Source of the DNA: an uncultured Gammaproteobacteria bacterium
GTDB taxonomy: Bacteria > Patescibacteriota > Patescibacteriia > CAZSQN01
Assembly: GCA_964609095.1 (NCBI GenBank)
Contig: CAZSQN010000002.1
Span: 152,066 to 216,065 of the forward strand
DNA length: 64,000 nucleotides
Direction: 5' to 3'
Every line of letters begins with the position of its first letter. The stretch's first letter is position 1. Below the pieces are notes generated by a model that saw only the letters and a list, made by a program, of their open reading frames with translations, had not been told where the DNA came from and made no database searches. Below are positions 4,739 to 48,351 of the stretch, piece after piece. The translations under genes were made by a program, and so were the position numbers.

Positions 4739-4739
4739 A

Positions 4740-31654: not shown

Positions 31655-31726
31655 AGCTGTTAGCTGTTAGCTTTTAGCTGTTAGAAGTTTTAAGCCCCTA
31701 AAAGCTATAAGCTACAAGCTAAAAGC
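31655..31726. repeat. tandem-heptamer hairpin, family B copy 1 (AGCTGTT/AGCTTTT arms vs AAAAGCT/ATAAGCT arms)
   Basis: agctgttagctgttagcttttagctgttag ... ctaaaagctataagctacaagctaaaagct; related copies at 38391 and 48287. Confidence 0.75.
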
Positions 31727-32899
31727 TTACGGGTTAATAATTCTTGGCGTTGAACTGGATTCGTCTGTTTTTATTTCATCAAAATTTTGCATTTGGAAAC
31801 TGGATGTAGCGCTTCCGTCTTGGCTTTGCGCCCGCACCTTAACTCCGTCTAAATTCAAGCCGCTTCCCTGGCCGGACGAACCTGAACCGGTCAGCGCCGG
31901 AGTTGAAGAATTGCCGCCGGAAGTAAGCGTAACCGTAACCGCCGTTACCGCGCGCACCAATTCCGTGCTTTCTTTAATCTTGCTTAAAGCCGAAACAAAA
32001 TCCCCTTCGGAAATCGCCTCGCGCGCTTCGCCGATAGCTGTTTTAACTTGAGCGGCAGATGACGGGGTTGAAGTGGCGGAAGAATTATCAACCATCTGCT
32101 CCGCTCTTTTTTCTATATCGTTGATTTTATTGGTTACCGAATCCTGGACCTCTTCCATTGATAAAACCGTGGAGCTGGAAGAAGTGTGCGCCACCACCAT
32201 TACTTCAACCGCCTTCACGCTCGCGTCTTCGGCAACTTCTTTTGCTCCCTGCACCATGCCCAGGGCCTCGCCTTCAGAAACCTTTTTTTCAACTTCTCCC
32301 AAAATCTGCTGGTGAACCTCGCTTTTAGCGTCAATTATTTTTGCCATCTGCACGACTTTTTCCGGCTCGCTTTTCGGGTCATCCAGATACTGGCTGGCTG
32401 TTTCCATTTCCTGTTTAAAGTCCTTCACGGCCTTGGCAATCCGGCTTACATTGTTTCCGGAATTGGAATCAGTAATTTTGGAAACCTCCTGCACGCGCCG
32501 GCCGGCAAACTCAATATGAAGTTCGGCTTTGGCCTCGGCATTGCTTGTAAGCCGCACCTGCGCCTCTTCGGTTATTCTTTTAAGGGGATAAAGCAGGTCG
32601 CCCGGAACGCTGTTAAGAGAAGCGGAAACAGTGGTCACGCTGCTGCCAAAAACAATGCCCCCGACAAGCACAATCACGGAAGCAACGCGACCGGCCACGC
32701 GCATATCGTCAATTGGCGCGAACGCGGCAACAACTTCTTTGGCGCGTTCAAGATATGAGAGAGGCCGCGGATTTGGTTCCACGGTATTTTTTACCTGCAT
32801 CATCAAAGTGCTTCTGGACGCCTCAACCCACTCTTTATTCGGCATTCCTAAATCACTTTTTCGCAGGTTCTTAAATTGTTCTTTTAACGCGTCTTTCAT
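31727..32899 (-). CDS. hypothetical membrane-anchored protein, probable anti-sigma factor partner of the upstream ECF sigma
   Basis: ATGA overlap with the ECF sigma gene; single predicted TM segment around residues 60-90; no recognisable catalytic motif. Confidence 0.4.
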   Translation of the reverse strand: MKDALKEQFKNLRKSDLGMPNKEWVEASRSTLMMQVKNTVEPNPRPLSYLERAKEVVAAFAPIDDMRVAGRVASVIVLVGGIVFGSSVTTVSASLNSVPGDLLYPLKRITEEAQVRLTSNAEAKAELHIEFAGRRVQEVSKITDSNSGNNVSRIAKAVKDFKQEMETASQYLDDPKSEPEKVVQMAKIIDAKSEVHQQILGEVEKKVSEGEALGMVQGAKEVAEDASVKAVEVMVVAHTSSSSTVLSMEEVQDSVTNKINDIEKRAEQMVDNSSATSTPSSAAQVKTAIGEAREAISEGDFVSALSKIKESTELVRAVTAVTVTLTSGGNSSTPALTGSGSSGQGSGLNLDGVKVRAQSQDGSATSSFQMQNFDEIKTDESSSTPRIINP

Positions 32900-33444
32900 G
32901 ATTTGTTCATTAATTCGCGCAATGTTTTTGAAGCGCGGTGCAATGTTACCCTTACGGCGCCTCTATTTTTATCAAGAATATCCGCTATCTCTCCTACGGA
33001 AAGTCCGTCTATATATTTAAGCTGAACAACTTCCCGATATTCTTCTTTCATCTTGTTCATTGCCGCAAGCAAAAGTCCGAAATCGTGTTTTGTTTCAATC
33101 TCCTTACCCTGCCTGCCTTCGTCTCCAAACATCGCCGCCGGTAATTCCGATTCCGTTAAAACGGACATCGCCTTTTTTCTGTAATGGTCAATCACTAAAT
33201 TGCGCGCGATTTTATAAAGAAAAGACGAAAGCTGTTTTATCTGCTTACCTTCCTGCAAATACTGCCAGGCCCGCAAAAATGTTTCCGAAACCAGATCGCG
33301 CGCCTCTTCCTCTCCCGAAACCTTAAAATAAATAAACCGATAGATTCGGTTTACGTATTCATCATAGACCTTTCCATACGCCTCCGGGTCCTTGCGGCTC
33401 GTTATGCGGAAAAGCAGGAGTTTTTCTTTTATATACTTGTTCAT
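32896..33444 (-). CDS. RNA polymerase ECF-type sigma factor (sigma-70 family, regions 2 and 4)
   Basis: 182 aa; region-2-like YRFIYFKV..ARDLVSETFLRAW and region-4 HTH LSVGEIADIL..GAVRVTLHRA. Confidence 0.75.
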   Translation of the reverse strand: MNKYIKEKLLLFRITSRKDPEAYGKVYDEYVNRIYRFIYFKVSGEEEARDLVSETFLRAWQYLQEGKQIKQLSSFLYKIARNLVIDHYRKKAMSVLTESELPAAMFGDEGRQGKEIETKHDFGLLLAAMNKMKEEYREVVQLKYIDGLSVGEIADILDKNRGAVRVTLHRASKTLRELMNKS

Positions 33445-33657
33445 GTATTAAGACGGAAAAAATTGATAAACGTTACAGCGGTTAAAGGCATTAGACATTA
33501 TATTGCTATATATAAAGCCATTTGCCGGATAAAATCAAGATGTTGATAAAAGATATCCGGCTGATTCTGAATGATTTATCTATATGTGGATAAATATGAT
33601 TTGCCAATTCCCATATTATTTGTATATACTAATATATACAAATAATAAATACTACTT

Positions 33658-33951
33658 ATGAACCAACCCGATAATGTAATAAGATTATCAATCAGCGAAG
33701 CAGGCCGGATTTTTGGTGTTAATCCGCAAACAATAAGACGGGCGATTAAAGCGCGGGAAGTGACTTATGTTGTGGTAAGGGGGCGCTATAAACTCAATTT
33801 TGAAAGTATTCTTAAATGGTCGCAAAAGCATGCCGGGGTTAAAAACAAACTGCAAAACCGCGGCATTGGGCAATTTGTTTCCGGTTGGAAAATAAACAAT
33901 CCCTTATACTCGCCAAATCCGGCTATTTTTAAAAAAACAAATGACAAATAA
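33658..33951 (+). CDS. excisionase-family helix-turn-helix DNA-binding protein
   Basis: LSISEAGRIFGVNPQTIRRAIKAREVTYVVVRGRY matches Xis/MerR-type HTH (TIGR01764-like) layout. Confidence 0.5.
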   Translation: MNQPDNVIRLSISEAGRIFGVNPQTIRRAIKAREVTYVVVRGRYKLNFESILKWSQKHAGVKNKLQNRGIGQFVSGWKINNPLYSPNPAIFKKTNDK

Positions 33952-34072
33952 AAAACGCTTGAGAGGTCTGGCATATAAACCAAAAAGAGGAGGAGGACTT
34001 CTTGGCAATACACCAAACCAATCAAGCGTTTTTTGTTAGTTTGACCTTACTATAAAAATCTATATTCGTCAA

Positions 34073-34226
34073 CCCCGCACATAACCCTGAACTCATTTAG
34101 GATTTCGCCAATTGTCATTCCCGCGAAAGCGGGAATCCACAATTGGCAAATTAATAATTTGAGCGCCTGGATTCCCGTTTACACGGGAATGACAGGCCAA
34201 AGTTTTTGTCAATTTTATGTGCGGGG
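34073..34226. repeat. REP-unit-bounded element (CCCCGCACATAA ... TTATGTGCGGGG) enclosing a copy of the ATTCCCGC palindromic core
   Basis: C form at 34073-34084, G form at 34215-34226, internal gtcattcccgcgaaagcgggaat...attcccgtttacacgggaatgac at 34114-34193. Lies between convergent genes. Confidence 0.7.
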
Positions 34227-35294
34227 TCAAGGCCGTGCTTTTAAGGTAATTTCTTTTGTTTCTTCGCGGCCGTCTTTGCGGCGGATGGCAAAACGCGCTG
34301 ACGCTCCGACGGGATATTCCGCGATCCGTTCTGACAAACTTATTTTCGCGGTTAGCTCGTCATCATCAATTTTTAAGATAACATCTCCGTCTTCCAATCC
34401 CGCGAGCTGCGCCGGGCCTCCTCTAACCGCTCCGCGGCGGCCGCCTGACGAAGCAATCAACGCTCCGCGCTCGCCATCCTCGCGCTTTGACAAAGTCGCT
34501 CCGAGGTCAATATAATTTACGCCCAAGAAAGGACGGGCTATCTTCCCCTGGCGCAAAAGCTCTCTAAATGCCGGCGACAGGTATTCAAAAGGAATGGCTG
34601 TCCCCCGCAAGGGATCGGTTAGCACGCCGACAAGATTGCTTTTTTCGTCAAACAACGGGCCGCCGGGCAGATTAATATCTTTTGTTCCCGAAACAAAAAC
34701 TGATTTTTTTGTTTTTTCGGATGATTGAATTTCATTTGCCTCGCCATTGATATAATTGATTCCTAAAAATTTAGGGCGATAGACATTCTTGAGATAATCA
34801 ACCGCCAGAAGTTCCGCGCCGGGGGAAAGCTCCCTGCTACTGCCGCCGCCGACTGCCGCGAATCTTTCTCCTTTAATGCGGAGAAAGGCCGCGTCAGTTG
34901 CCGTATCATAAATAATTGATTCAACCTGATGCGGCGCCCTATCCCCGGTCACGGCCAAAATTTTAGCCGTTCCCAAACGCGCGACTTTGGAAGTGGTAAC
35001 AGCCCAGCCGTCGGAAGTAAGCATGGCGCCATAGCCAAGCTGGTCATCATAGGTCGGCGGCGCCTTGCCGCGATTCACGTAAAAGGTGACGAGGCCAAGG
35101 TTAGCTCTTTCAATCTTGTCATTTTCTTTTTCCAATCCGCCGCGGTCAACCGGAGGCCTTAAAAAACTTTCTTTAATCCCGTAAACAGGCGCGTAAACGC
35201 CGGCGATAATAAGGCCGCCCAAAATGCCGGAGATTAAACCGAAAACAGAGGAAAGAAAAATAATTTTTAAAATTTTCCACCTAAATTGGGGCAT
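34227..35294 (-). CDS. HtrA/DegP-like trypsin-fold protein with C-terminal PDZ domain, catalytic His and Ser not conserved (probable pseudo-protease)
   Basis: Trypsin-fold plus PDZ layout (GDVILKIDDDEL). The expected TNAHV and GNSGGP motifs read TTSKV and LPGGPL here. N-terminal TM anchor. Real ATG preceded by TTGTGTGCGGGGT. Confidence 0.55.
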   Translation of the reverse strand: MPQFRWKILKIIFLSSVFGLISGILGGLIIAGVYAPVYGIKESFLRPPVDRGGLEKENDKIERANLGLVTFYVNRGKAPPTYDDQLGYGAMLTSDGWAVTTSKVARLGTAKILAVTGDRAPHQVESIIYDTATDAAFLRIKGERFAAVGGGSSRELSPGAELLAVDYLKNVYRPKFLGINYINGEANEIQSSEKTKKSVFVSGTKDINLPGGPLFDEKSNLVGVLTDPLRGTAIPFEYLSPAFRELLRQGKIARPFLGVNYIDLGATLSKREDGERGALIASSGGRRGAVRGGPAQLAGLEDGDVILKIDDDELTAKISLSERIAEYPVGASARFAIRRKDGREETKEITLKARP

Positions 35295-35295
35295 A

Positions 35296-35427
35296 CCCCG
35301 CACACAACTTGTTTAATCCAATCATATCACGAATGATATGCATTTAATTAACCAAGCCATGTTAATGATTTTTGTTTCTCATTAAGAAGAACATAAAATA
35401 TAAGCTATAAGCAGGTTGTGTGCGGGG
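35296..35427. repeat. REP-unit-bounded 132-bp element (variant arms CCCCGCACACAA / TTGTGTGCGGGG)
   Basis: Seen directly. Internal palindrome catatcattcgtgatatg. The 3' arm abuts the ATG of the HtrA-like gene. Confidence 0.65.
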
Positions 35428-35494
35428 CATATCCGTCTAAATTTTTCGCTTTAATTTTAATTAAAATTGTTCCGCCCGCCTAAGAGCGAAAAAC

Positions 35495-36265
35495 TTAGGC
35501 GGGCCACTCCGCGCTTGCGGCAACAAGCGCCAGCGCCAGAGCCGCGAAAAATAAATTTCTCGCAAATATCCTCTTATCCAAACGCCCTTCCGTCTTTAAC
35601 CGGTAAAGATTCAAAAAAACAGCCAGGGGAATCGCCGTAAACGCGCCGTTAACCGCGAGCGAGGTCGGCAGGCCGTAAACGGCGATAAATATCTGCGGAG
35701 CAAAAAGAGCCAGCCAAAACGACCTAAAAGCAATATCACCCGCCGTAAGCTGGTCCCCCGCCGTCAAGGCGCTGCCTAAAAAAGCGCGATGAAAAAACAG
35801 CGACACCAAAAATATTATTGCCAAAAGAGGCGGCAGAGGAGCGTTCAAGAATATCTTTAAGCCAAACATGGCGGCGCTGGCCCAAAACACCGTGGCCGCG
35901 TAAGACAAAATAATAAATCCGGAAATCGCGCCAGGCTCTTTTTCCTTGCCGGTTGCCTTAAGAAAACGCAGCTGCTCAACCATAAAAACCAGCATGCCGG
36001 AGAGAGCCGCGGCCATCAAATGGCGCGGCGCCGTCCTTTCGGTAAAAAGAAGAAAGCCAAAAGCCGAGGCAATAAGCAATATCTGGCTTAAAAGCACAAT
36101 CCGCAATTGCCCTGACCATTTTCTCTCATAAATTCCCCAAAGAGAAAAGGCCGTTGCCAAAAGCAGAAGCAAAAACGCCGGTATAAAAAAGATCGGCCTT
36201 CGAGCCGCCGCCTCCACGCTTAGAAAAGCGAAAATCCCGACCAAATACGGCAATAGCTGGCGCAT
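35495..36265 (-). CDS. hypothetical polytopic membrane protein
   Basis: 256 aa, about 7 hydrophobic helices, no recognisable motif. Confidence 0.45.
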   Translation of the reverse strand: MRQLLPYLVGIFAFLSVEAAARRPIFFIPAFLLLLLATAFSLWGIYERKWSGQLRIVLLSQILLIASAFGFLLFTERTAPRHLMAAALSGMLVFMVEQLRFLKATGKEKEPGAISGFIILSYAATVFWASAAMFGLKIFLNAPLPPLLAIIFLVSLFFHRAFLGSALTAGDQLTAGDIAFRSFWLALFAPQIFIAVYGLPTSLAVNGAFTAIPLAVFLNLYRLKTEGRLDKRIFARNLFFAALALALVAASAEWPA

Positions 36266-36269
36266 ATTG

Positions 36270-37316
36270 CTAAACGCTATTAGTCATGCCGCGATACTTG
36301 CTTGGAAAAAGCTCGGAAATAAGCGCGTCCAAGGCGGTGACAACCGGGATGGCAAAAAGAACGCCCATTATTCCGGCAAGCCGCGCGCCAACAAGCACGG
36401 CTATGACGGAAATCACCGGATTGATGCCAACCGCTTTTTGCATTACCTTTGGCACCAGGATGTTATTTTCAACCTGCTGAATAACAAAATAAAGAATAAT
36501 AACCAGCATTGCTTTAAGAGGCGATACGGAAAAAGCCAGAAGAACCGCCGGAATGGCCGAAACAATAGGCCCGATATAAGGTATAAACTCAAGCAGGCCG
36601 GCCAACAGCCCCAGGACCAGCGCGTAGTTTACGCCAAGGATAAGCAGGCCGATATAAGCCATCAAACCTATAATCAAAGACAAAATAATCTGGCCGCGCA
36701 GCCATGACCCGACTTTCTTTTGTATTTTCAAAAGAAGCTGTGAAAGCAGGACATGATACTGCTCCGGCGCGATAGCCCGCGCCATTCTCTTTAACGCGCC
36801 CTCTTCAACCACTAAATAGAAAGAAATGACCAGGAACACTATCAGGGAAACAAGGCCGGAGACCGCGCCGGAAATCGTGCTAAACACGCCGCCCGCCGCC
36901 CTTGCCAGACCTGATTCAACGGCTGAAATTCCGCTTTCAATATTTTCTAAAATTCCGTATTTTTGCCCAAACTCCCTGATGCTGCCGGCCTGGTCAAGCA
37001 ATCTTTCCAGAAGACGCGCCAAACTGGCGACAAATTCGCGCATCTGGTCAAAAAGCGGAGGAACAAGAAGAGTGACCACAAGCACCAGCGCTCCCAAAAG
37101 GCCGGCGTAAATAGCCAGTACGCCCAAAGCCCTTGGTATGCGCTTTCTCTCGCACCAATCAGCCGCCGGATCCATTACCGCCGCCAGAATAAGCGAGGCA
37201 AAAAGAATGGCTATAATGTCCCTGATGACATATAAAAACCAAAAAAACAACAAAACCGCGGCGATCTGAAACAATGTCCCTGTTTTTATGCCAATGTAAG
37301 TTTTTCCGTCAGCCAT
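36270..37316 (-). CDS. AI-2E family transporter (UPF0118/PerM-like)
   Basis: 348 aa, 8-TM layout and sequence texture of the AI-2E family. Confidence 0.7.
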   Translation of the reverse strand: MADGKTYIGIKTGTLFQIAAVLLFFWFLYVIRDIIAILFASLILAAVMDPAADWCERKRIPRALGVLAIYAGLLGALVLVVTLLVPPLFDQMREFVASLARLLERLLDQAGSIREFGQKYGILENIESGISAVESGLARAAGGVFSTISGAVSGLVSLIVFLVISFYLVVEEGALKRMARAIAPEQYHVLLSQLLLKIQKKVGSWLRGQIILSLIIGLMAYIGLLILGVNYALVLGLLAGLLEFIPYIGPIVSAIPAVLLAFSVSPLKAMLVIILYFVIQQVENNILVPKVMQKAVGINPVISVIAVLVGARLAGIMGVLFAIPVVTALDALISELFPSKYRGMTNSV

Positions 37317-37318
37317 AT

Positions 37319-37478
37319 AGCTGGTATTAGGTTTATAAAAAATTGTTTATAAATTTAGCCAAAAATTTAGGTTTAAACTTTGCCAGTTATCTGTCATTCC
37401 CGCGAAAGCGGGAATCTACGGGTTCAAATTCTGGATTCCCGCTTTCGCGGGAATGACAATGGAAACCTAATATCAGTT
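37319..37478. mobile_element. MITE-like 160-bp element, copy 2 (left TIR degenerate AGCTGGTATTAGGTTT, right TIR AAACCTAATATCAGTT)
   Basis: More than 95% identical to copy 1 over the interior. Begins 2 nt after the start codon of the AI-2E gene (on its upstream side). Interior has TTGGCT-N18-TTATAA promoter-like spacing facing that gene. Confidence 0.75.
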
Positions 37479-37546
37479 AATAATAATTTAATGATACCAA
37501 AAATCAACTATTAGTCAAACGGTTTCCAACTTGCTATAACAGATAT

Positions 37547-37993
37547 ATGAACGATCTGGCAACAAACAAAAACGCGAGTTATGATTATGAAATCTTGGAA
37601 CGGTTTGAGGCGGGTTTAATATTGTTCGGCCACGAGGTCAAATCAGCCAAAGGCGGCGGAGCATCGCTTAAAGGGTCTTATGTCATCATCCGGGGCAACA
37701 AGGCGTCTCTTATAGGCAGCCACATAGCCAGATGGAAACCAGCCGGAGTTATCCCTGGTTATGACCCGGAACGCTCCCGCGAACTTCTTTTGCGCAAAAA
37801 GGAGTTAAAATACCTCCTGGGAAAAACCGCTGAAAAAGGCTTGACGGCGGTGCCGCTTAGGATGTATACTAAATCGGGCAAAATAAAGCTTGAATTTGCC
37901 CTTGCCCGCCATAAAAAGAAATATGAAAAGCGGGAGAAAATAAAAGAAAGAGAAGTTAAAAGAATTATCGGAAGCGCCGTAAGGCGCACCTAA
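37547..37993 (+). CDS. smpB: SsrA-binding protein SmpB
   Basis: YDYEILERFEAGLILFGHEVKSAK... canonical SmpB. Confidence 0.9.
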   Translation: MNDLATNKNASYDYEILERFEAGLILFGHEVKSAKGGGASLKGSYVIIRGNKASLIGSHIARWKPAGVIPGYDPERSRELLLRKKELKYLLGKTAEKGLTAVPLRMYTKSGKIKLEFALARHKKKYEKREKIKEREVKRIIGSAVRRT

Positions 37994-37995
37994 TG

Positions 37996-38383
37996 GGGGG
38001 ATGCAGGGTTTCGATCAGGAAGTTCCTTTAAACAATCACGTCGGGGGCCATACCCCGTTATAAATAGGAATCTATTACGTGCAAACGTATTTTCTAGAGT
38101 GAAGAGCGCGTTGGCGAAAGCTTTTGCGACTCCTTCGCTCGTTATGGTCGCGGCCTAAAACCGCTTCCCATCCGCCCTGTTGACGTCCGATAAATAGGGG
38201 CCGGGTGTCATATTTCGGGCCTTTGCGCAAAGCATCCTCGTATGCGAATCGTAGATTAGAGGATCGGACGCGATGAACTCTGTCCGCCTTTATCATCGCG
38301 TTCAAAATTGAGACGGACTAACGTGCAGTATTGTTTAAATTCTCTTCTTGAGACGCGGGTTCAACTCCCGCCATCTCCACCAA
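37996..38383 (+). ncRNA. ssrA: tmRNA (ssrA)
   Basis: 5' GGGGGGATGCAGGGTTTCGA..., 3' tRNA-like end ...GCGGGTTCAACTCCCGCCATCTCCACCA. Internal in-frame tag reading frame from GCA AAC ... ending ...LVMVAA then TAA. Immediately downstream of smpB. Confidence 0.85.
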
Positions 38384-38390
38384 AATAACG

Positions 38391-38450
38391 AGCTTTTAGC
38401 TGTTAGCTTATAGAATTTCCTATAAGCTATAAGCTATAAGCTATAAGCTA
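38391..38450. repeat. tandem-heptamer hairpin, family B copy 2
   Basis: agcttttagctgttagcttatag ... ctataagctataagctataagctataagct between tmRNA and infC. Confidence 0.7.
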
Positions 38451-38456
38451 AGTTTA

Positions 38457-39008: not shown

Positions 39009-39010
39009 AT

Positions 39011-39084
39011 ATAGGGTATAGGGTTTAGCGTTTAGGGTTTAGAAAAATTCACTGAACGCTATACGCTAACCGCTGAACGCTAAA
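39011..39084. repeat. tandem-heptamer hairpin, family C copy 1 (GTTTAGC/GTTTAGG arms)
   Basis: gggtttagcgtttagggtttag ... cgctatacgctaaccgctgaacgctaa; fills the infC-rpmI intercistronic gap. Confidence 0.7.
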
Positions 39085-39283: not shown

Positions 39284-39287
39284 TTAA

Positions 39288-39356
39288 AGGGTAGAGGGTT
39301 TAGCGTTTAGGGTTTAGGCAAAAAAATCTAACCGCTAAACGCTAACCGCTAAACGC
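39288..39356. repeat. tandem-heptamer hairpin, family C copy 2
   Basis: gggtttagcgtttagggtttagg ... ctaaccgctaaacgctaaccgctaaacgc; fills the rpmI-rplT gap. Confidence 0.7.
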
Positions 39357-39364
39357 TATTATTT

Positions 39365-39851: not shown

Positions 39852-39885
39852 CCCCTCCGAACTTATTCGGAGGGGTTTTGTTTTA
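39852..39885. terminator. bidirectional intrinsic terminator cccctccgaa-ctta-ttcggagggg flanked by A/T runs
   Basis: 10-bp GC stem; T-tract TTTTGTTTT on plus, A-tract upstream. Between convergent rplT and protease genes. Confidence 0.65.
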
Positions 39886-40650: not shown

Positions 40651-40974
40651 TTTTTTCTCCTTGCCCCGAGCGCTTTGAGGGGCTTTGTCAATGTACTACC
40701 CAGACATTAACAAAAAACTCTATTAAAATCAATCAGCATCGCGCTAGCGCGCAATTGAGGAAAACAAAAAACAGATTAAAAAACAAACTGGTCCGATCGG
40801 ACCAAAGTATTATCTGTAAAAAAATTTTAATATTTAAAATATGAAATTAATTGTATTCCCAATCCCCTATTACTTGCTATAGCAAGTAATAGGGGACAGA
40901 TGATATCTTTCCTTCCAAAATTAAAAACGCCCGCCTCTCCGAAGAGAAGCGGACGCAAAGAGCTAATGAGAAAG

Positions 40975-41382: not shown

Positions 41383-41410
41383 TTGGTCCTCCTTTGGTTA
41401 TTGGAAGGAA

Positions 41411-42097
41411 CTACCAGTTCTCGCAGTTCAACGCGCGCTGTCCCGGCGTCAAACGATTGCCGTCGCACATGAGCTTGGTAATCTGCTCCACGCCCTGGCG
41501 CGGATTGCCAGCAACCAGAGCGCAAGACCCGTAGTCCTCTGCGTGCTCCGAAGGAGTTACCACAATGAAGTGGTCGCCGGTTCCGCTCAAGTCGGAGCAG
41601 AGCTCGGCGCCTAAATCAATGCACTCCTCCAGCCCGCTATCGCTCTGCAGCGGCTCGTCTGTGAAAAGAACGATGACGCGCTCGGCTTCCTCGTCCCAAG
41701 TGAACGGAAGTTCGCCAGTAGCCAGATCGGAAACCGCCTCGAAAGTCGGCTCCGTTCTGAAACCGCGCCATTCACGTGTGGCAGATCGGAAAGAGAAGGC
41801 AAAATCAGTGAAAGCAACGAGTTCCGAGTAAATTGACGGGTTGAAATCCGTCTTGCCCTCTTGCGAGACCGTCACGATTCCCATGCGGACGGACTCGTCC
41901 GCGAAAATCCACCAGCGCGACGCATAGGCGTCTTCGATGGCGTTGTGCGTTCTCTCCATGGAAGGACTTGTGTCCACGACGAATACGATGTTGTATGCTG
42001 GCTGGACACACTGCTCGCCATAGGCCGCCTGCGCCAAAGGCGCAAACGAGAAAACGACACACACGGCCACGAACAAACGAATGTTCCAGAGTTTCAT
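41411..42097 (-). CDS. secreted von Willebrand factor type A (vWA) domain protein
   Basis: Signal peptide ending AQAA; MIDAS-type DxSxS motif VVDTSPSM early in the mature chain. Confidence 0.55.
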   Translation of the reverse strand: MKLWNIRLFVAVCVVFSFAPLAQAAYGEQCVQPAYNIVFVVDTSPSMERTHNAIEDAYASRWWIFADESVRMGIVTVSQEGKTDFNPSIYSELVAFTDFAFSFRSATREWRGFRTEPTFEAVSDLATGELPFTWDEEAERVIVLFTDEPLQSDSGLEECIDLGAELCSDLSGTGDHFIVVTPSEHAEDYGSCALVAGNPRQGVEQITKLMCDGNRLTPGQRALNCENW

Positions 42098-42210
42098 CTG
42101 CTTTTCTCCTTGTTTGTCGAAGGTCTAAGCTCATCACACCTATTGTGATGGCCTTAGATTTCGGGGCGAGTGATTTTTAAGCACTCGCCCTGGGTCAAAA
42201 GAACTTGTTG

Positions 42211-42489
42211 TTACTTTTCGTCACAGTGGCAACAATGTACAACACCGTCGCCATCGCAGTGAAAACAGAGATCATCGGAGGCACCGCTGTTGGTGCTGAA
42301 AACGCCGTTACCTGCGCAATCGGGGCAAATGATATACCCCTTATCGTTGCAGAGACGGCAGCTCACTGCCCGTTCTCGGCAGAAATTTGCGCACCATCCA
42401 TTCAAATTCTTCTCGCCGCCGCACTTGGAGCAGCGATCGGCAGTGAAGATGCGCTGGCCGATCTCCAAACCGTGTTCACAGGCCGCCAT
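42211..42489 (-). CDS. small cysteine-rich protein with four CxxCxGxG motifs (DnaJ-type zinc-finger-like)
   Basis: CSKCGGEK, CRLCNDKG, CPDCAGNG, CFHCDGDG plus terminal HCCHCDE. Chosen over the antisense 299-aa plus-strand ORF because of this motif periodicity. Confidence 0.5.
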   Translation of the reverse strand: MAACEHGLEIGQRIFTADRCSKCGGEKNLNGWCANFCRERAVSCRLCNDKGYIICPDCAGNGVFSTNSGASDDLCFHCDGDGVVHCCHCDEK

Positions 42490-42501
42490 TGTCTTCTCCT
42501 T

Positions 42502-42981
42502 TCATGGCAAAATTATTTCGCATCCCGGAGCATGGACGAGGTGGGGCATATCGTCAATGATCTGGACGCCGGTAATTCCCAGCGCCTCAAAATCCTTGGC
42601 GAGCTTAAACCTCTCCTCATCTTCTCCGTTTACTACCACCGTAAAAGTTTGAATGACCTTGTTCGGAGGATTCAAGATCAGCCGCGGACGCGGCAAGGAA
42701 GCGAAACGACCCTTCTCAAAGAAGAAATCTCGCGCTCCCGCCGGATTCCAGGTCTGGATGATGAACGGCTCCTCGGCCAGAAACTCGTGAAGCAACTTGC
42801 CGCAGAGCCAATCGCGGCCAGTCCATCCGTTGTCGTCGGAAATGGTCTGGTCAAAATCAATGAAGCGGCGGACGCTTCCGATGATCTCACGGACTTGCTC
42901 GCCCGTGAGCGTGGCCGGATTCGGCCAGGCCACGAAATCAAGCAAATCGTGATCAGAGAACATGATTTTTTCCTTTTTCAA
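42502..42981 (-). CDS. hypothetical protein (GC-rich island)
   Basis: 159 aa, no recognisable motif; co-oriented and tightly spaced with neighbours. Confidence 0.35.
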   Translation of the reverse strand: MKKEKIMFSDHDLLDFVAWPNPATLTGEQVREIIGSVRRFIDFDQTISDDNGWTGRDWLCGKLLHEFLAEEPFIIQTWNPAGARDFFFEKGRFASLPRPRLILNPPNKVIQTFTVVVNGEDEERFKLAKDFEALGITGVQIIDDMPHLVHAPGCEIILP

Positions 42982-43074
42982 AGATTCCTCTTAATCCCCC
43001 TCCGCAGAATTGCAGAGAGGAACTTAGTGGGAACCCCGACAAAGAAATATGTCGGGGAGTTGGAAAGAACATTT

Positions 43075-43476
43075 TCAGCGACGGGAAGCGTAGGCGAAGC
43101 TTGAACGCTGCCGGATGGCCGTGTAGCCGTTCACGATGACGAGGGGCTTGCGCATTGCCTCTTCCAGAATCTGGCGGATGCGCCCTTCGTTGCGGCTGGA
43201 AAGCCGCGGGGCGATGACCGTCACCTTGACGGTGGTGGCGCCTGGATGTGGAAGAACATCCACGAAGAGCTCGAAACGCGGAAGAATCCGCGCAAGCTCA
43301 TCGCGCACCGCAACCGCGTAGGTTTGGGCGACCACGCGGCCACCGGTGACCACCTGAACCTCGTGATGCAAGGGCTCGGCATCGGCCTCGCTAATGAAAG
43401 CGAAGAAAGCCGCGGCCAAGAGGGCTCCGAGCGCGAACGCGAACAACAATTTGCTCTTCATCTCTTTCCTCCTCAT
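43075..43476 (-). CDS. hypothetical secreted protein (signal peptide)
   Basis: Signal-peptide-like N-terminus (hydrophobic stretch ending ADAE); ATGA overlap with the upstream gene. Confidence 0.35.
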   Translation of the reverse strand: MRRKEMKSKLLFAFALGALLAAAFFAFISEADAEPLHHEVQVVTGGRVVAQTYAVAVRDELARILPRFELFVDVLPHPGATTVKVTVIAPRLSSRNEGRIRQILEEAMRKPLVIVNGYTAIRQRSSFAYASRR

Positions 43477-43976
43477 CTTGCGTTGTTTGTTCTCTGAACT
43501 CGCGCCGTTCTCAAAACGATGACGCGAGCAAGATGTTCCTCTTGCGGAACGGCCTTGTTCGCGTTTCCGCCGGCCTTCTCTTCCGCGAGAAAGTTGAACT
43601 TTGCTCGCAAAGAGTCCTGCCAGGAAAGAAGCCGACCCATTCCGTCTGAAGGCAGGTTTTCGCCCTCGTTCTTGGCGGCGGAGAAGATGCTGATGAGCCG
43701 AGAAACACGGAGCATCTCCCCAAAGATTTCGTCCATTTGCCTTTCTCTCTCTTCCCTTTTGAGGTCAGAGAGCAGGACCGACGCGGAAGGCGGGTTGAAC
43801 GCAACCGACCACACCTCGCGCTTTCGGAACCGAACGGCCGGCGTAGTGAAAGCTTTCACCGTCAGCACGAAACAAAACCCGATTGCAAACAGCGCGTACA
43901 TGCAGTAGACCACTTTATCCTCCTTGCCCCCAACGAAGTCGAGGGGCTTGTTGTTGAATGTCCTATGAGCTCCCAA
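43473..43976 (-). CDS. hypothetical membrane-anchored protein; first gene of island operon
   Basis: TM helix (YALFAIGFCFVLTV) then charged region; start uncertain (the Met at 43901 is equally plausible). Confidence 0.35.
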   Translation of the reverse strand: MGAHRTFNNKPLDFVGGKEDKVVYCMYALFAIGFCFVLTVKAFTTPAVRFRKREVWSVAFNPPSASVLLSDLKREERERQMDEIFGEMLRVSRLISIFSAAKNEGENLPSDGMGRLLSWQDSLRAKFNFLAEEKAGGNANKAVPQEEHLARVIVLRTARVQRTNNAR

Positions 43977-44067
43977 TCACCATGATTGATTTCTCAATTG
44001 GATTTCCAAATGTTTTTAACATACACACATTTGGCAGATTTTTTAATAACTGTTATATTATATTTAT

Positions 44068-44433
44068 ATGAACAATGAGCCAACAACCAATGAAGTTCTT
44101 GAAGCAATCAACACTCTGTCAACTCATATTGATGAACGTTTTACGCGAGTTGAAAATGATATCACTGGCATAAAAGGTGATATCACTGGCATAAAAGGTG
44201 ATATCACTGGCATAAAAGGTGAGATTATCGAAATCAAGGCCACCATGGTTACTAAGGATTATCTTGATGACAAACTTGCAGATTTGCGAGGCGACCTTGT
44301 GGTCTTGATGCGCAAGGAAGACAAAAAGGTTCAGAGTTTGGTGGAATTGCTTCACTCTAAAAAAGTCATTTCCGAAGAAGAAGCCAAGCGCATTCTCTCC
44401 ATGGATCTTTTTCCGCAAGTTTCTCTGCGATAA
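44068..44433 (+). CDS. hypothetical protein containing three perfect tandem DITGIKG heptapeptide repeats
   Basis: Perfect 21-bp x3 DNA tandem repeat at 44157-44219 (gatatcactggcataaaaggt); remainder predicted helical/coiled-coil; AT-rich. Confidence 0.45.
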   Translation: MNNEPTTNEVLEAINTLSTHIDERFTRVENDITGIKGDITGIKGDITGIKGEIIEIKATMVTKDYLDDKLADLRGDLVVLMRKEDKKVQSLVELLHSKKVISEEEAKRILSMDLFPQVSLR

Positions 44434-44460
44434 TTACTTGCAGAAAAGATTTTACTTTTG

Positions 44461-44490
44461 CGCCCCGCGTAGGCGGGGTGTTTTTATTTT
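44461..44490 (+). terminator. intrinsic terminator cgccccgcgtaggcggggtg + TTTTTATTTT
   Basis: 8-bp GC stem, T-tract; 28 nt after the 44068..44433 stop. Confidence 0.65.
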
Positions 44491-44826
44491 CTTTCCTTTC
44501 CTCCTTATTCTCCTAGTCGTGCGACTAAGCGACTATTTGAATGTCCGCTCGCCAGTTCGGCGAGCGGTCGCTGATGTAGCGACCGAATCTCGCAGACCGC
44601 TACGCACCATGCGTAACGACCTATGAATTCGCCCCCACAACCAATTTTCATTGGTGTGAGGGGTAAAGGGCGAGTGGTTTTACAACCATTTCAATTGCCT
44701 CATAAAGAGCTTTATTTGTATTTATTACTATAGCACACTGGGGATAAGTTGTCAAGGACATATAGACGATTTTAGAGTGAAATAGTCATTTTAAGCCATT
44801 TTTTATGTTAAAAATACCTAACAAAA

Positions 44827-44850
44827 TACCCTCTTATCAGAGGGTATAAC
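44827..44850 (-). terminator. intrinsic terminator for thrC (taccctc-ttatcag-agggta then U-tract on minus strand)
   Basis: Hairpin directly after thrC stop; minus-strand downstream sequence ttttgtt. Confidence 0.5.
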
Positions 44851-46128
44851 TTAAAGAACTTTTTTCAGCTCATCCAAAGTCGGCTCAATCACCACCGATC
44901 TATTGGCCAAAGGCGAATCTGATTCGTGGAAATTCAGAGTTGCCGTCTGGTCTTTTAAGAAATGTCCGGTCAAAATACAGACAACAAAATCGCTCTCCTC
45001 TATAATTCCGCTCGCCCGCAGTTTCAGAAGTCCGGCCAAAGTGGCGCAGCTTGCCGGTTCCGCGCCAACGCCTTCGCGGTCAAGCAGGGCTTTGGCCTCC
45101 ATAATCTCCTCATCGCTTACTTTTTCCACCACGCCTCTGGTAAACCTGATGGCTTGCGCCGCTTTACTATGATTTATCGGAACGCCTATTTCAATGGCCG
45201 AGGCGATTGTTTTCGCCTCCGGCAGAACAAAGCGCATAGTGAAATTTTCCCTAAACGCTCTATAAAACGGATTGGCGCCCTTGGCCTGGATTACGGCAAG
45301 GCGCGGCATTTGCGAATAATCTATCACGCCCGCAAGAAATATCTCCCTAAGGGCTTTGCCAAAAGCGGAAACATTTCCCAAATTGCCGCCCGGCAGAATA
45401 ATCCAATTTGGCAACTGCCAATGCAGCTGCTCCAGCAGTTCCCAGATAATCGTCTTCTGCCCTTCCAAACGGACGGGATTAATGGAATTCACAACATGCA
45501 GTCCCAGTTCCGAACCGTGAGCGGCCACCAGCTTCATGCAGGCGTCAAAGTTGCCGCGCACTTTGATAACGCGGGCGCCATAAGCAATTGCTTGCGAGAC
45601 CTTGCCCAAAGCCACACGTTCGCTGGGCATCAGGATATAAGCGCGCATTCCCGCGGCGCGGGCATAGCTTGCGACAGAGGCCGCCGTATTGCCGGTGCTG
45701 GCGCATAGAAGCGCGCGGCTGCCAAGATGCTTTGCCCAAGAAACAACAACAGTCATGCCGCGATCCTTAAAGGAGCCGGTCGGATTCTCGCCTTCATGCT
45801 TAAACATCAATTTGCGCACGGCCGCCATCTCCGCCAGCTTGGAAAATTCATAGACGCGCGTATTGCCTTCCGCTCTTGAAATAATTTTTTCGTCCGGAAA
45901 TCCGGGCAGAATAAGATCGCGATAACGCCAAACGCCGGAGGAGTCCGGCAAATTTTTAGCTCCCCATCTGCGCTCCAAAATCCGCATCCAGTTCTGCCAT
46001 CTCAATTGAGCCAATACTTCGCTATGGTCAACTTCCAAGAGCCCGCCGCATTCGCAGAGATTGCGTCCGGAAAGCAAGGGGTATTTCCGCTCGCAAGAAC
46101 TTTGAACGCACTTCAAAACCGATTTCAT
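44851..46128 (-). CDS. thrC: threonine synthase
   Basis: PLP-lysine motif FKDRGM, 425 aa, ThrC N-terminal Cys cluster. Confidence 0.85.
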   Translation of the reverse strand: MKSVLKCVQSSCERKYPLLSGRNLCECGGLLEVDHSEVLAQLRWQNWMRILERRWGAKNLPDSSGVWRYRDLILPGFPDEKIISRAEGNTRVYEFSKLAEMAAVRKLMFKHEGENPTGSFKDRGMTVVVSWAKHLGSRALLCASTGNTAASVASYARAAGMRAYILMPSERVALGKVSQAIAYGARVIKVRGNFDACMKLVAAHGSELGLHVVNSINPVRLEGQKTIIWELLEQLHWQLPNWIILPGGNLGNVSAFGKALREIFLAGVIDYSQMPRLAVIQAKGANPFYRAFRENFTMRFVLPEAKTIASAIEIGVPINHSKAAQAIRFTRGVVEKVSDEEIMEAKALLDREGVGAEPASCATLAGLLKLRASGIIEESDFVVCILTGHFLKDQTATLNFHESDSPLANRSVVIEPTLDELKKVL

Positions 46129-46162
46129 TTCTCTTCTCCTTTTTTCACGGTTTTCTCAAAAA

Positions 46163-47179
46163 TTATTCCGCTCCAAGCAGTTTCGCCCCGGCTGAACTGA
46201 ATTGGCTCCCATAGGCGTTTCCTCTGCCAAAGGCAGAAGCCATCGCCGCCGCGATCATCAGCGCTTGGTGATAGCTTTCCGCAACCACAAATAACGACGG
46301 TCCGGCTCCTGATAATCCAATGGCGGCTTTTGCGCCAAGATGCTTTGCCGCGCTTTTGGCAACGGCAACGGCCTTGGCATATATTCTCTTTCCGTAAAAT
46401 TCAAACCGTTTTGGCGTCACCAACTCATCGCTTTCAACAATGGAAACAAACTCGTCAAAATCACGATGAGAGATCGCCTCAATCAGGCCAAGAGATGCTT
46501 TGGCTGACCTTTCGCGAACTTCAAACCAAAATCCAATATCTTGAGGCAAAATCTCGCGGCTGGACTTAGTTGATTCCTTGGAAAACGGCGGCGTAAAAAC
46601 CGCTATACCCCAATCAGGCAAGTCGTGGATAAACTTAGCGCGCACGTTTTTATCATCTTCGCTGATTATTGATGTAAATCCGCCCAAAAGAGAAGCCGCC
46701 GCATTATCATAATGAGCAACTCCGGAAGAAACGGCCTCAACACCTCCGGCAAGTTTAACGGCCTCTGAAAGACGAAATCCGGCGTTTAACTTCTTATTAA
46801 ATGCCTGATTCTTCCCGACAAGGGCTGAGGCGCTGACTAGTCCGGCAACTGCCGAAGCCGCTGATGAGCCAAGCCCGTATCCCGCCGGCACGCCTTTCCA
46901 AACCCCGACTTCAATGCCGATTGATTTTTCCCAATCAGGCGCGAGCGCGTCTAAAGCAACTTTAACCGCGATGGACGCGATGTTTTCTGCCGGATTGTCC
47001 GAGGTTCCCAAAAGCAAACTGTCTTTGGATAAGACAACGCCGCGAAGGCGGCTGTTTGCTTTTACGGAAACAACATCCCAAAAATACGGAAAAGACAAAC
47101 CCACTCTGTCAAAACCAGGTCCAAGATTGGCGATGGAAGCCGGCGCCTTTGCGCGCGCTTCGCTGTATTCCAATTTCAT
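46163..47179 (-). CDS. thrB: homoserine kinase (GHMP kinase)
   Basis: PASIANLGPGFDRVGLS GHMP motif. Confidence 0.8.
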   Translation of the reverse strand: MKLEYSEARAKAPASIANLGPGFDRVGLSFPYFWDVVSVKANSRLRGVVLSKDSLLLGTSDNPAENIASIAVKVALDALAPDWEKSIGIEVGVWKGVPAGYGLGSSAASAVAGLVSASALVGKNQAFNKKLNAGFRLSEAVKLAGGVEAVSSGVAHYDNAAASLLGGFTSIISEDDKNVRAKFIHDLPDWGIAVFTPPFSKESTKSSREILPQDIGFWFEVRERSAKASLGLIEAISHRDFDEFVSIVESDELVTPKRFEFYGKRIYAKAVAVAKSAAKHLGAKAAIGLSGAGPSLFVVAESYHQALMIAAAMASAFGRGNAYGSQFSSAGAKLLGAE

Positions 47180-47224
47180 TCTAATTCTCCTTTGTAAAAG
47201 AACAAGATAACTTTAATGGAAAAA

Positions 47225-48280
47225 TCACCTTCTTGGCAAGAGTCCTTTTGCCGCCAGCAGTTCCGCGTTTAATATTGAACCTCCGGCCGCGCCGCGAATG
47301 GTATTATGAACCAAAAGCGTGAATTTGTAATCCAAAACATTATCCGGCCGCAAACGGCCGATAACCACGCTCATCCCATCGCCCTCATTCCTGTCTTTTC
47401 GCGGCTGAGGCCGGTCATCCTCTTGGCGCAAAACAAGACAATGCTTTGGCGCGCTTGGCAGATTAAGTCCGAAAATAGACGGAACAAATTCAGAAAACGC
47501 GCGGCGCGCTTCTTCTATGGTCGCTTTGCGCTCAAATTCCGCGCTGACGCATTCCGTATGCCCGTCGCGCACGGCCACGCGATTGCAGTGCGCCGATATT
47601 CTAAACTCCGCCGGAATAAATCCTGAAGGCGACAATCCGCCCAAAATTTTTCTTGGCTCCGATTCCACTTTTTCTTCTTCGCCGCCGATATAAGGAATGA
47701 CATTATCCAGAATATCCATAGAGGCCACGCCCGGATAACCGGCGCCGGAAAGCGCCTGCATCGTCGTGACTATAACTTTTGTTATTTTAAAATTATCGTG
47801 CAGCGGCTTTAACGCCATAACCAGACCGGTTGTGGTGCAGTTGGGATTGGTAATGATAAACCCGGACGAGCCGCGGCGCTGCTTTTGCAATTCCAATATC
47901 TCCAAATGCTCCGGATTAACCTCCGGCACAAGCAGAGGCGCATCAACATCCATCCTGTGATTTTTTGAATTTGAAAGCACGGCATATCCGGCTTGCGCGA
48001 ATCTTTCTTCAATCTCTCCGGCAACGGAGGCGTCTAAGGCGGAAAAAAGCGCGTCGCAGGGAAGATTGGAATAAACATCGCTTACGGCCATGCCTTTAAC
48101 TTGCTCCGGCATTGGCTCGTCCAATACCCATTTTGTCGCTTCGGCATAAGATTTTCCGGCCGAGCGTTCAGATGCGGCAAGAGCGGTTAACTCAAACCAA
48201 GGATGATTTGACAATAATTGGACAAACCGCTGTCCGACTGCGCCGGTCGCGCCTAAAATTCCGACACGATACTTTTGCAT
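47225..48280 (-). CDS. asd: aspartate-semialdehyde dehydrogenase
   Basis: VGILGATGAVGQRF Rossmann, active-site Cys context SGAGYPG..CTTT. Confidence 0.85.
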   Translation of the reverse strand: MQKYRVGILGATGAVGQRFVQLLSNHPWFELTALAASERSAGKSYAEATKWVLDEPMPEQVKGMAVSDVYSNLPCDALFSALDASVAGEIEERFAQAGYAVLSNSKNHRMDVDAPLLVPEVNPEHLEILELQKQRRGSSGFIITNPNCTTTGLVMALKPLHDNFKITKVIVTTMQALSGAGYPGVASMDILDNVIPYIGGEEEKVESEPRKILGGLSPSGFIPAEFRISAHCNRVAVRDGHTECVSAEFERKATIEEARRAFSEFVPSIFGLNLPSAPKHCLVLRQEDDRPQPRKDRNEGDGMSVVIGRLRPDNVLDYKFTLLVHNTIRGAAGGSILNAELLAAKGLLPRR

Positions 48281-48286
48281 AAACTA

Positions 48287-48351
48287 AGCTGTTAGCTGTT
48301 AGCTTTTAGCTGTTAGAAGTTTCGTGACCCCTAAAAGCTATAAGCTAAAAG
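48287..48351. repeat. tandem-heptamer hairpin, family B copy 3, occupying the entire hom-asd intercistronic space
   Basis: agctgttagctgttagcttttagctgttag ... ctaaaagctataagctaaaagctaaag; begins 6 nt from asd ATG and ends at the hom stop. Confidence 0.75.

Follow-up and report, generated by a model that had tools for sequence, protein, structure and literature searches.

Three tandemly repeated heptanucleotides had been reported from the cyanobacterium Calothrix before an excess of such repeats was recognized genome-wide in 2007, and the short tandemly repeated repetitive (STRR) heptamers of heterocystous cyanobacteria likewise predate that year. It was Mrazek et al. (2007) who noted that heptanucleotide repeats are in excess in the intergenic DNA of prokaryotes and who suggested polymerase slippage as the source, according to the summaries in two later papers (PMC4679880, PMC4692102). 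The first of these papers, MacGregor 2015 (PMC4679880), deals with TAACTGA direct repeats in marine Beggiatoaceae, Cyanobacteria, and Bacteroidetes, and the second, Rehm et al. 2015 (PMC4692102), with GGGAATC and GGGGAYT heptamer repeats in Xanthomonas and Nostoc. Here we describe heptamer repeats in a 64,000-nt stretch of contig CAZSQN010000002.1 (positions 152,066 to 216,065; hereafter the window), in which three hairpins, termed family B, have arms made of tandem heptamers with an AGCT core. One of the three lies between hom and asd in the threonine (thr) operon. The host is a groundwater Uhrbacteria genome of the candidate phyla radiation (CPR), as the asd protein is labelled 'Candidatus Uhrbacteria bacterium' at NCBI. 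The window corresponds to positions 129154–193153 of contig JACOZF010000008.1 (assembly GCA_016181485.1), with SRR12113430, SRR12113385, and SRR12113390 among the source samples. The data comprise these 64 kb of a 313-kb contig together with five relatives.

The elements have the tandem 7-nt units, the over-representation, and the intergenic location of the heptameric long simple sequence repeat (LSSR) class. As summarized in PMC4679880 and PMC4692102, LSSR and STRR sequences are likewise tandem arrays of 7-nt units that are over-represented, mostly intergenic, and found in many phyla; they vary in unit number, as relatives of family B do at some loci (see below). Within genes, LSSRs are tolerated only where the frame stays open, as is also seen for arrays in Wzy_C genes of the window. 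In the same summaries LSSRs are mainly direct, whereas the elements here differ in being predominantly inverted pairs, in having a palindromic AGCT core, and in belonging to a CPR genome. No description of such hairpins in Patescibacteria was found in the literature searched.

The TAACTGA repeats resemble the window elements in that the heptamers lie a few nucleotides upstream of starts without a Shine-Dalgarno sequence, including those of ribosomal-protein operons (PMC4679880), and in that the units contain stop codons, which limits their orientation in coding DNA. They differ in arrangement, since BOGUAY has 169 direct sets and one inverted set (PMC4679880), whereas five of the six clear intergenic period-7 elements of the window are inverted. 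The TAACTGA repeats also have a preferred orientation to the downstream gene, which palindromic elements cannot show, and the units here are AGCTKNT and TAGSGTT. The GGGAATC and GGGGAYT repeats are intergenic arrays that, at a given junction, differ in length and sequence from one close relative to another; inverted pairs that can fold into stem-loops are among them, as are arrays within operons, such as between pecE and pecF (PMC4692102). They are G-rich and have been investigated for the formation of G-quadruplexes, whereas the AGCT units are AT-rich and have no G-quadruplex potential.

Repetitive extragenic palindromic (REP) sequences, bacterial interspersed mosaic elements (BIMEs), and REPINs of Enterobacteria and Pseudomonas (PMC3116915) are, like the elements described here, dispersed imperfect extragenic palindromes situated between co-transcribed genes or after stop codons. 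REPs are GC-rich, associated with REP-associated tyrosine transposases (RAYTs), and have arms that are not tandem (PMC3116915), whereas the present elements change by whole heptamers and occur as three copies in the 64-kb window. The REP/BIME sequences, as a barrier to decay or as a site of ribosome stalling at a nearby stop, would nevertheless be the nearest functional analogy. In position, the nearest analogy is the rpmI-rplT structure of Escherichia coli, which concerns the same operon and junction as family C copy 2 of the window, and lies between a stop and a start ~50–80 nt apart, where it could make translation of the downstream gene dependent on that of the upstream one (PMC12548453). 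It differs in being a specific long-range pairing under L20 control (PMC12548453), whereas the window has a generic repeat that differs between relatives and is absent in one of them.

We consider it probable, though with only moderate confidence, that the elements are palindromic heptamer simple-sequence-repeat elements, which have been shaped by slippage and copying, are tolerated at gene junctions, and have incidental REP-like effects at the RNA level. In each, a 7-nt unit, made up of a self-complementary AGCT core and a 3-nt spacer that varies, is repeated in tandem in two arrays that are inverted relative to each other. In all three family B hairpins the 5′ arm contains 3–4 tandem AGCT(G/T)(T/A)T heptamers with AG at the end, the loop is 6–14 nt long, and the 3′ arm opens with CT, followed by 3–4 A(A/T/C)(A/C)AGCT heptamers. 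An earlier note on this DNA had placed three hairpins at these positions and had described imperfect 20–28-bp stems made of heptamers. Both the positions and the anatomy are borne out by the sequence and by repeat finders, with copy 3 reaching 48353, 2 bases past the end noted then (Table 1).

The core pattern AGCTNTTAGCTNTTAGCT, allowing at most one mismatch, has seven matches in the window compared with 0.00 in 100 dinucleotide-preserving shuffles, and chance is therefore excluded. An inverted-repeat finder returned family B arms of 23 nt with a complementarity of 83–87%, and Tandem Repeats Finder (TRF) reported every family B arm as a period-7 array of 2.6–4.4 copies. The predicted RNA folding energies are −25 to −33 kcal/mol with z-scores of −3.3 to −5.8, on either strand. 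The asd-side junction of copy 3 was found in independent Logan assemblies of three sequencing runs, all of which end inside copy 3. This recurrence, with the breaks inside the element, shows that the sequence is real, is no assembly artefact, and is repeated in the genome.

Table 1. Repeat elements, genes, and candidate regulatory region of the window (positions counted from its first base)
Feature	Position	Strand	Sequence or content	Basis
Family B copy 1 (subtype B1)	31655-31727			
Copy 1, 5′ arm	31655-31684		AGCTGTT AGCTGTT AGCTTTT AGCTGTT AG	
Copy 1, loop	31685-31697		13 nt	
Copy 1, 3′ arm	31698-31727		CT AAAAGCT ATAAGCT ACAAGCT AAAAGCT	
Family B copy 2 (subtype B2)	38391-38450			
Copy 2, 5′ arm	38391-38413		AGCTTTT AGCTGTT AGCTTAT AG	
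Copy 2, loop	38414-38419		AATTTC	
Copy 2, 3′ arm	38420-38450		CT (ATAAGCT)x4	
Family B copy 3 (subtype B1)	48287-48353			
Copy 3, 5′ arm	48287-48316			
Copy 3, loop	48317-48330			
Copy 3, 3′ arm	48331-48353			
Family C copy 1	39012-39084	+	fills infC-rpmI gap	repeat finders, folding
Family C copy 2	39286-39358	+	fills rpmI-rplT gap	repeat finders, folding
thrC (threonine synthase)	44851-46128	-	PALP enzyme	domain scan
thrB-like	46163-47179	-	GHMP kinase	domain scan
asd	47225-48280	-	Semialdhyde_dh	domain scan
hom	48352-49386	-	Homoserine_dh	domain scan
lysC	49374-50777	-	aspartate kinase	domain scan
Candidate thr-operon regulatory region	50772-50907	-		promoter-like site, leader open reading frame, terminator-like hairpin
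Perfect pentamer hairpin	3546-3594		24-nt arms, (ACATA)3 / (TATGT)3	
Three adjoining heptamer arrays	23910-24003	-	TTTTGAG x4.4, TTTCGGA x4.4, CCAACTT x3.3	
Heptamer array in paralogous Wzy_C+TPR gene 25253-27547	26349-26378	-	GGAAGCT x4.3	
Direct unpaired heptamer array	63729-63764	-	(AGAAAAT)n, sense orientation; abuts ATG of gene 63235-63729	
Inverted repeat with TGTCATTCCCGCGAAAGCGGGAATC arms, four copies	27572-27648, 34113-34194, 37392-37458, 61609-61687			

All hairpin copies are located in gaps between open reading frames (ORFs). Copy 3 fills the 71-nt gap between hom and asd (48281–48351); its outermost heptamer includes the hom TAG stop codon (48352–48354) with a 2-nt overlap, and the other end is 6 nt from the asd ATG (48278–48280). 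Copy 2 begins 8 nt past the CCA end of the transfer-messenger RNA (tmRNA), which was located at 37997–38382 by its Rfam model with 114 bits and was missed by ARAGORN, and it stops 6 nt short of the infC ATG (38457). Copy 1 has 1 nt in common with the TAA stop of a DUF5667 gene (31727–32899, minus strand), which comes after an extracytoplasmic function (ECF) sigma factor gene, and it is located 121 nt upstream of a 1226-aa ORF. The coordinates agree with what had been claimed, namely that copy 3 fills the hom-asd gap exactly and that the other copies abut gene ends, copy 2 after the tmRNA and copy 1 between a surface-protein gene and its upstream neighbour. The 1226-aa ORF had been labelled a surface protein; it has no Pfam match, and the label found no confirmation. 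No sigma-70-like promoter is predicted between the tmRNA and infC, so that infC-rpmI-rplT may be co-transcribed with ssrA.

The genes stand flush with the stems. In four of five window hairpins the stop lies inside the 5′ arm or 0–4 nt from it, and the start lies 4–8 nt past the 3′ arm. The genes that start 4–8 nt past a 3′ arm, asd, infC, rpmI, and rplT, have no GGAG or GAGG motif. A missing Shine-Dalgarno sequence was considered as a special mark of the hairpin junctions and rejected, because it is the norm here: a clear Shine-Dalgarno sequence is present in 12 of the 57 window genes and absent from 45.

To follow the junctions through related genomes, five relatives with flanks were compared (L126, L129, L131, L132 from SRR22388016, and L133), whose asd is 76–85% identical to that of the window and to each other. 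The flanking genes form conserved housekeeping operons that are syntenic in the relatives. At the hom-asd junction, L129 (92 nt) and L133 (71 nt) carry an unrelated hairpin of AATT-core heptamers, with arms of the type AATTTTC AATTATC ... / GAAAATT GATAATT ..., whereas L131 (35 nt) has an octamer array, (ATTTAAAN)x4, and L132 has 16 nt only. L126 is without hom, and its lysC-asd gap carries (AATTGAA)x3. Between rpmI and rplT, where the window has family C, L126 carries a family B hairpin and L132 has 11 nt. Family B hairpins that are orthologous to each other stand between the tmRNA and infC in L126 and in the window, and L132 has no hairpin there. Hairpins have thus been gained, lost, and replaced at the same junctions, and an operon can do without them.

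Whole elements have also been copied between junctions within the genome. Copy 1 stands 17 kb from copy 3, and a run of 37 bases reaching from the 5′ arm into the loop is identical in the two; the differences are a few loop bases and exactly one heptamer, copy 3 being the shorter. The 37 common bases mark copy 3 as recent and not as long established in the thr operon. The suggestion that family B is a dispersed, REP-like repeat is upheld by this near identity at separate junctions, and copy 2 has close copies in L126. A further sign of copying comes from L126, where the two copies share an (AAAAGCT)x4 arm while the orthologous window copy has (ATAAGCT)x4, from which it follows that arrays are homogenized within the arm and the genome. 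Such homogenization, as far as these sequences indicate, is the signature of slippage and gene conversion and not of site-by-site selection.

Near-identical copies at unrelated junctions, with non-repetitive loop bases included, would also be produced by a miniature mobile element resembling a miniature inverted-repeat transposable element (MITE) or a REPIN, moved by an enzyme encoded elsewhere and recognized through its heptamers. Filled and empty sites among relatives, assemblies that break at the repeat, and the presence of the family in many environmental genomes all fit this explanation. However, the three copies show no target-site duplication and no terminal inverted repeat beyond the palindrome itself, and a domain scan that covered 53 of the 57 called window proteins, together with precomputed Pfam hits for ribosomal proteins L35 and L20, turned up no transposase, no RAYT, and no integrase. 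Families with unrelated units moreover have only period 7 in common, and viral contigs gave almost no match (see below). We therefore regard a mobile element as rather improbable.

Relatives of family B were sought in genomes and metagenomes. When one genome per species was scanned for (AGCTNNT)x3.5, at least 120 loci were obtained, and the matches listed include Acidobacteriota (many), Cyanobacteria, Bacteroidota, Gemmatimonadota, Bacillota, Proteobacteria, and Patescibacteria. Among the matches listed, 116 AGCT-core arrays are not at a contig end, and for 23 of these an inverted partner lies no more than 60 nt away, compared with 0 for shuffled flanks. A metagenome scan, with statistics that are conditional on its 22-nt pattern (the last two 5′ units and the loop start), found 113 loci at 104 distinct sites, 49 of them hairpin-type. 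In 2.9 million viral contigs there was a single match to the search pattern, and a phage-borne element was rejected on this ground.

Comparison of the same locus between contigs shows that the arrays expand, contract, and homogenize unit by unit, each arm independently. There were 16 between-contig groups, a 17th group being two sites on one contig, and unit number varies in 2 of the 16 with flanks otherwise identical. In one group the number of units is 4, 7, 8, and 10; in the other the 3′ arm has 6 or 9 units while the 5′ arm is fixed at 3. Length variation of the kind that the earlier note had expected from slipped strands is therefore seen in these related elements, as well as between copies 1 and 3. 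The comparison of arm repeats among strains or metagenome reads that it had called for is thereby carried out in part, on related elements; for the window copies, an exact-protein look-up of L35 returned the source contig only, and the asd contigs from Logan end inside the hairpin.

The metagenome hairpins are also flush with gene boundaries (median ~4–5 nt on either side), as judged from the longest-ORF heuristic, a crude caller, that was applied to the fetched loci. The loop occurs in both orientations relative to the flanking genes (9 versus 5). Of 23 metagenome hairpins with genes called on both sides, 14 lie at codirectional, 8 at convergent, and 1 at divergent junctions, and the background junctions of the same loci are 69.5% codirectional, 19.3% convergent, and 11.2% divergent, with no significant difference (p = 0.06 and 0.25). 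A preference for gene 3′ ends was accordingly rejected, convergent junctions being slightly but not significantly over-represented (p = 0.06). There is no positional or strand logic beyond the elements being intergenic and flush with genes. In six metagenome loci (L137, L141, L146, L184, L187, and L197) the loop carries TGCTATAAT, an extended −10 consensus, directed towards the 3′ arm and the adjacent ATG, and hairpins of this subfamily might provide a promoter. For the window copies, which are without TGCTATAAT, a promoter inside the element was rejected.

The flush position of stops and starts raises the possibility that these are intercistronic RNA hairpins under selection. The stem would join the stop and the start, or mask positions −20 to −8 of the initiation region, so that the downstream cistron is translated only if the ribosome terminating upstream opens the stem (the RNA-unfolding coupling model); alternatively, it would shield the upstream message from 3′ exonucleases or serve as an RNase III/E site. 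Besides the stops and starts flush with the arms in four of five window hairpins, this explanation gains from the different hairpins held by the same junctions in relatives, from the greater stability of family C on the sense strand, and from E. coli rpmI-rplT, which with its +52-nt spacing couples through an inhibitory structure (PMC12548453). The geometry is less favourable elsewhere, as 121 nt separate copy 1 from the next start and the RNA ahead of copy 2 is not translated. Liang, Rudd, and Deutscher are said to have shown in 2015 that REP hairpins less than ~15 nt from a stop can stall terminating ribosomes in E. coli.

A pairing analysis of 47 related hairpins with 174 paired units bears on this question. 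The AGCT cores pair at 78% of positions, whereas the spacers pair at 60.5% in register compared with 57.5% when the 3′ arm is slid by one unit. Spacer triplets are perfectly complementary in 27 of the 174 paired units, against 34.5 expected for independent arms, and in the window copies 1 of 10 spacer pairs is perfect. The commonest spacer combinations are TTT:AAC, with a T.C mismatch, and GTT:AAA, with a G.A mismatch; T.C, G.A, T.T, and A.A mismatches dominate, and wobble-compatible types are a minority. Compensatory evolution is therefore absent, and the heptamers as a rule have one mismatch each. We infer that long perfect palindromes are lost and that imperfect ones survive.

Accessibility of the downstream starts is ordinary for the genome. 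The predicted unpaired probability of the start regions is 0.43 for asd, 0.47 for infC, 0.46 for rpmI, and 0.34 for rplT, compared with 0.45 ± 0.15 for the genome, and sequestration of the downstream initiation region was rejected because of this average value. The independent variation of arm lengths, the absence of these hairpins from L132 and L131, the 8 of 23 related elements between convergent genes, and the commonness of starts without a Shine-Dalgarno sequence, which do not mark these junctions, all speak against selected hairpins as well. The earlier note had proposed that a hairpin between hom and asd would act as an mRNA stabilizer, a processing site, or a modulator of coupling. These RNA roles gained no computational support, given the lack of compensatory pairing, the average start accessibility, the two loop orientations, and the convergent junctions, and they are plausible by analogy only. 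Selected intercistronic hairpins thus appear possible but doubtful, and a selected role in coupling or in mRNA stability is to be held with the same reserve.

Two features of the unit sequence were examined and set aside. The polarity of T-rich 5′-arm and A-rich 3′-arm spacers was rejected as trivial, since either strand of an inverted repeat shows this pattern; an orientation is set by the loop alone, and both orientations occur. Every AGCTNNT unit contains TAG, and TAA on the complement, but the notion of stops in all three frames on both strands fits families B and C and fails for the AATT-core 5′ arm in relatives. The stop codons in the units are most simply a filter on where arrays survive, as MacGregor argued.

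Several observations weigh against elements that are merely tolerated. The same 2–3 junctions are repeatedly filled by hairpins of unrelated sequence, which could mean selection for a hairpin and not mere tolerance. The B2 copy at tmRNA-infC has been kept in L126 (asd 83% identical) with a nearly identical 5′ arm and loop. Both family C hairpins are 5–9 kcal/mol more stable on the sense strand (n = 2), because of G.U pairs; this is the signature expected of an RNA-level constraint and, with n = 2, the sole such hint. Variation in unit number was seen in related elements and between copies 1 and 3 rather than at the window copies' own loci, and the metagenome figures depend on the pattern and gene caller described above.

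For palindromic repeats shaped by slippage and copying, the reading that we prefer, the following course may be envisaged. Replication slippage at the DNA level would be the driver, perhaps aided by gene conversion or by template switching within a strand. With a self-complementary core (AGCT, AATT, or TTTAAA), an array could fold back, which would make it easy for inverted arrays to arise and to last. A hairpin in a very short cistron junction without a Shine-Dalgarno sequence would do little harm in a compact genome, and one mismatch per heptamer would keep the palindrome genetically stable. Transcripts would fold into AU-rich, mismatch-punctuated hairpins of 20–28 bp, the effects of which would be incidental and REP-like, such as slowed 3′ exonucleases. 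As a single stem would hold stop and start together at its base and be opened by the terminating ribosome, coupling could survive a 70-nt insertion.

A more far-reaching proposal is that heptamer hairpins are a sequence-independent module actively selected at junctions without a Shine-Dalgarno sequence, in CPR and other bacteria. Here, too, the stop and the start would lie at the stem base, and the terminating ribosome would open the stem and re-initiate across ~70 nt; the 7-nt periodic mismatches would tune stability and protect from palindrome-directed deletion. We rate this as improbable. If true, it would explain why unrelated heptamer families replace each other at one junction, and it would give the excess of bacterial heptamer repeats a testable function.

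The invariance of the TAGCT core, while other positions vary, would suit arrays of binding sites for a protein that covers ~7 nt per monomer, such as a cold-shock-domain protein, S1, or a DNA-binding factor, with the hairpin as a competing unbound state. S1, Csp, or CsrA-like binders were proposed by MacGregor for the TAACTGA repeats just upstream of starts (PMC4679880). Yet the unrelated heptamers AGCTNNT, TAGSGTT, and AATTNNC are found at the same junctions, arrays of other units occur inside coding regions, and no candidate protein is tied to the elements in the window. A binder is for these reasons quite unlikely.

The hairpins are very unlikely to be intrinsic (Rho-independent) terminators or attenuators inside operons. 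Stable hairpins at gene 3′ ends would be expected of terminators, and a small sub-hairpin of copy 1 was flagged as terminator-like in a scan, but the stems are AU-rich, have a mismatch every 7 bp, and are followed by no U-tract. The elements also separate essential co-oriented genes (infC-rpmI-rplT), whereas canonical GC-rich stems with a T-run are present at operon ends, at 39852–39875 (after rplT), 44847–44826 (after thrC), and 50954–50930 (after the upstream sigma factor gene). A known RNA family was rejected as well. With Rfam 15, only the tmRNA and a tRNA reach the gathering score in the window, and at E ≤ 1 the hairpins match eukaryotic microRNA-precursor models only, far below threshold. 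No integrase, Cas, or Nop-domain protein is present in the window, and an integron attC, CRISPR, or TIGR array was rejected, as there are no spacers, no associated genes, and syntenic housekeeping flanks.

The regulator of the thr operon is likely to be a classic leader-peptide attenuator upstream of lysC, judging from the sequence of that region. A promoter-like site (TTGACT and TACCAT, spaced by 17 nt) ends 6 nt before the leader ATG, possibly giving a leaderless transcript. It is followed by a leader ORF rich in Thr codons, MEMFVLITTTTATSL with a stop (50825–50872), and by a terminator-like hairpin (50797–50772). The Thr-rich leader ORF is kept in L129 (MQSVRVTTTGTATSP with a stop, 7150–7365) and in L126 (MDLFILITMTTTTSP with a stop, 2600–2760). 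The Rfam Thr_leader model scores 18.6 bits (E = 0.23) on the region upstream of lysC; with so weak a score, this would be a divergent, unannotated leader. Copy 3 itself was rejected as the threonine-operon leader, as it lies between hom and asd and encodes nothing, while a separate leader exists. The special link to the thr operon that had been suggested for copy 3 thus finds no support, copy 3 being recent, the relatives differing at hom-asd, and the regulator lying upstream of lysC. For a CPR bacterium it is unusual to have the complete lysC-hom-asd-thrB-thrC operon. Its asd protein has relatives that are 78–86% identical in a small clade, whereas the next best are ~63% identical and belong to assorted phyla and archaea; this gap suggests acquisition by an ancestor of that clade.

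The earlier note had missed that family B belongs to a broader pattern of heptamer repeats, which extends through the window and to other bacteria. The window contains 14 period-7 arrays of at least 2.5 copies, compared with 0.9 in shuffles that preserve local composition (~15-fold), and the common denominator of the elements is period 7, not sequence. In family C, copy 1 has the arms TAGGGTA TAGGGTT TAGCGTT TAGGGTT TAG / AACGCTA TACGCTA ACCGCTG AACGCTA, and the units across both copies are TAGGGTT/TAGCGTT versus AACGCTA/AACCGCT. Copy 1 folds with −29.1 kcal/mol on the sense and −20.5 kcal/mol on the antisense strand. In ~250 fetched loci there were no further family C copies except in the source contig and one direct array.

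Arrays are also found within genes. The three adjoining arrays are in frame and stop-free on the coding strand, inside a Wzy_C+TPR gene (23022–25256), and the GGAAGCT array, also without a coding-strand stop, encodes an insertion, SQLPDSSFQLPIS, that is absent from other Wzy_C paralogues. Four Wzy_C (O-antigen-ligase-like)+TPR paralogues stand in tandem, and two of them thus contain such arrays, in loops that are variable or absent in the others. As one 7-nt unit gained or lost shifts the frame, the Wzy_C genes could be phase-variable surface-glycosylation genes.

Other repeats in the window and the relatives are of different design. The perfect pentamer hairpin spans the stop of a glycosyltransferase gene (3581–4747) and the start of a PMT_2 gene (2136–3557), and the prediction for the start codon is complete pairing, with an unpaired probability of 0.00. 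Direct heptamer arrays lie directly or a short way upstream of start codons in the window (63729–63764), in L132 (54–85), and in L129 (7295–7327 and 741–923), with the units AGAAAAT, AATTGRA, TTAGGCG, and GTTGGAA, and they resemble the Beggiatoaceae TAACTGA case. Another dispersed inverted-repeat family, presumably the family A of the earlier note, has TGTCATTCCCGCGAAAGCGGGAATC arms, each arm a small hairpin, with 17–28 nt between arms. In L126 (12900–13490, minus strand) the tmRNA 3′ end is duplicated around an insert of ~100–140 nt, and a tRNA 3′ end is likewise duplicated in L129 (280–560). The two inserts share the motif GAAGGGCGCGAGAGC...GCGCAGCGCCC...GCGAGTC...GCGAGC and look like a miniature element or an island remnant that integrates at tmRNA and tRNA 3′ ends.

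The cause of period 7 and the role of bacterial heptamer repeats are still open. To these repeats the locus adds a palindromic AGCT-core form that recurs across phyla, and elements that are wedged into essential operons (infC-rpmI-rplT and thr) of a very compact CPR genome. Since the elements break short-read assemblies and mimic regulatory hairpins, annotators should not call them operon-specific regulators. The filled, differently filled, and empty orthologous junctions constitute a natural experiment on mRNA decay or translational coupling.

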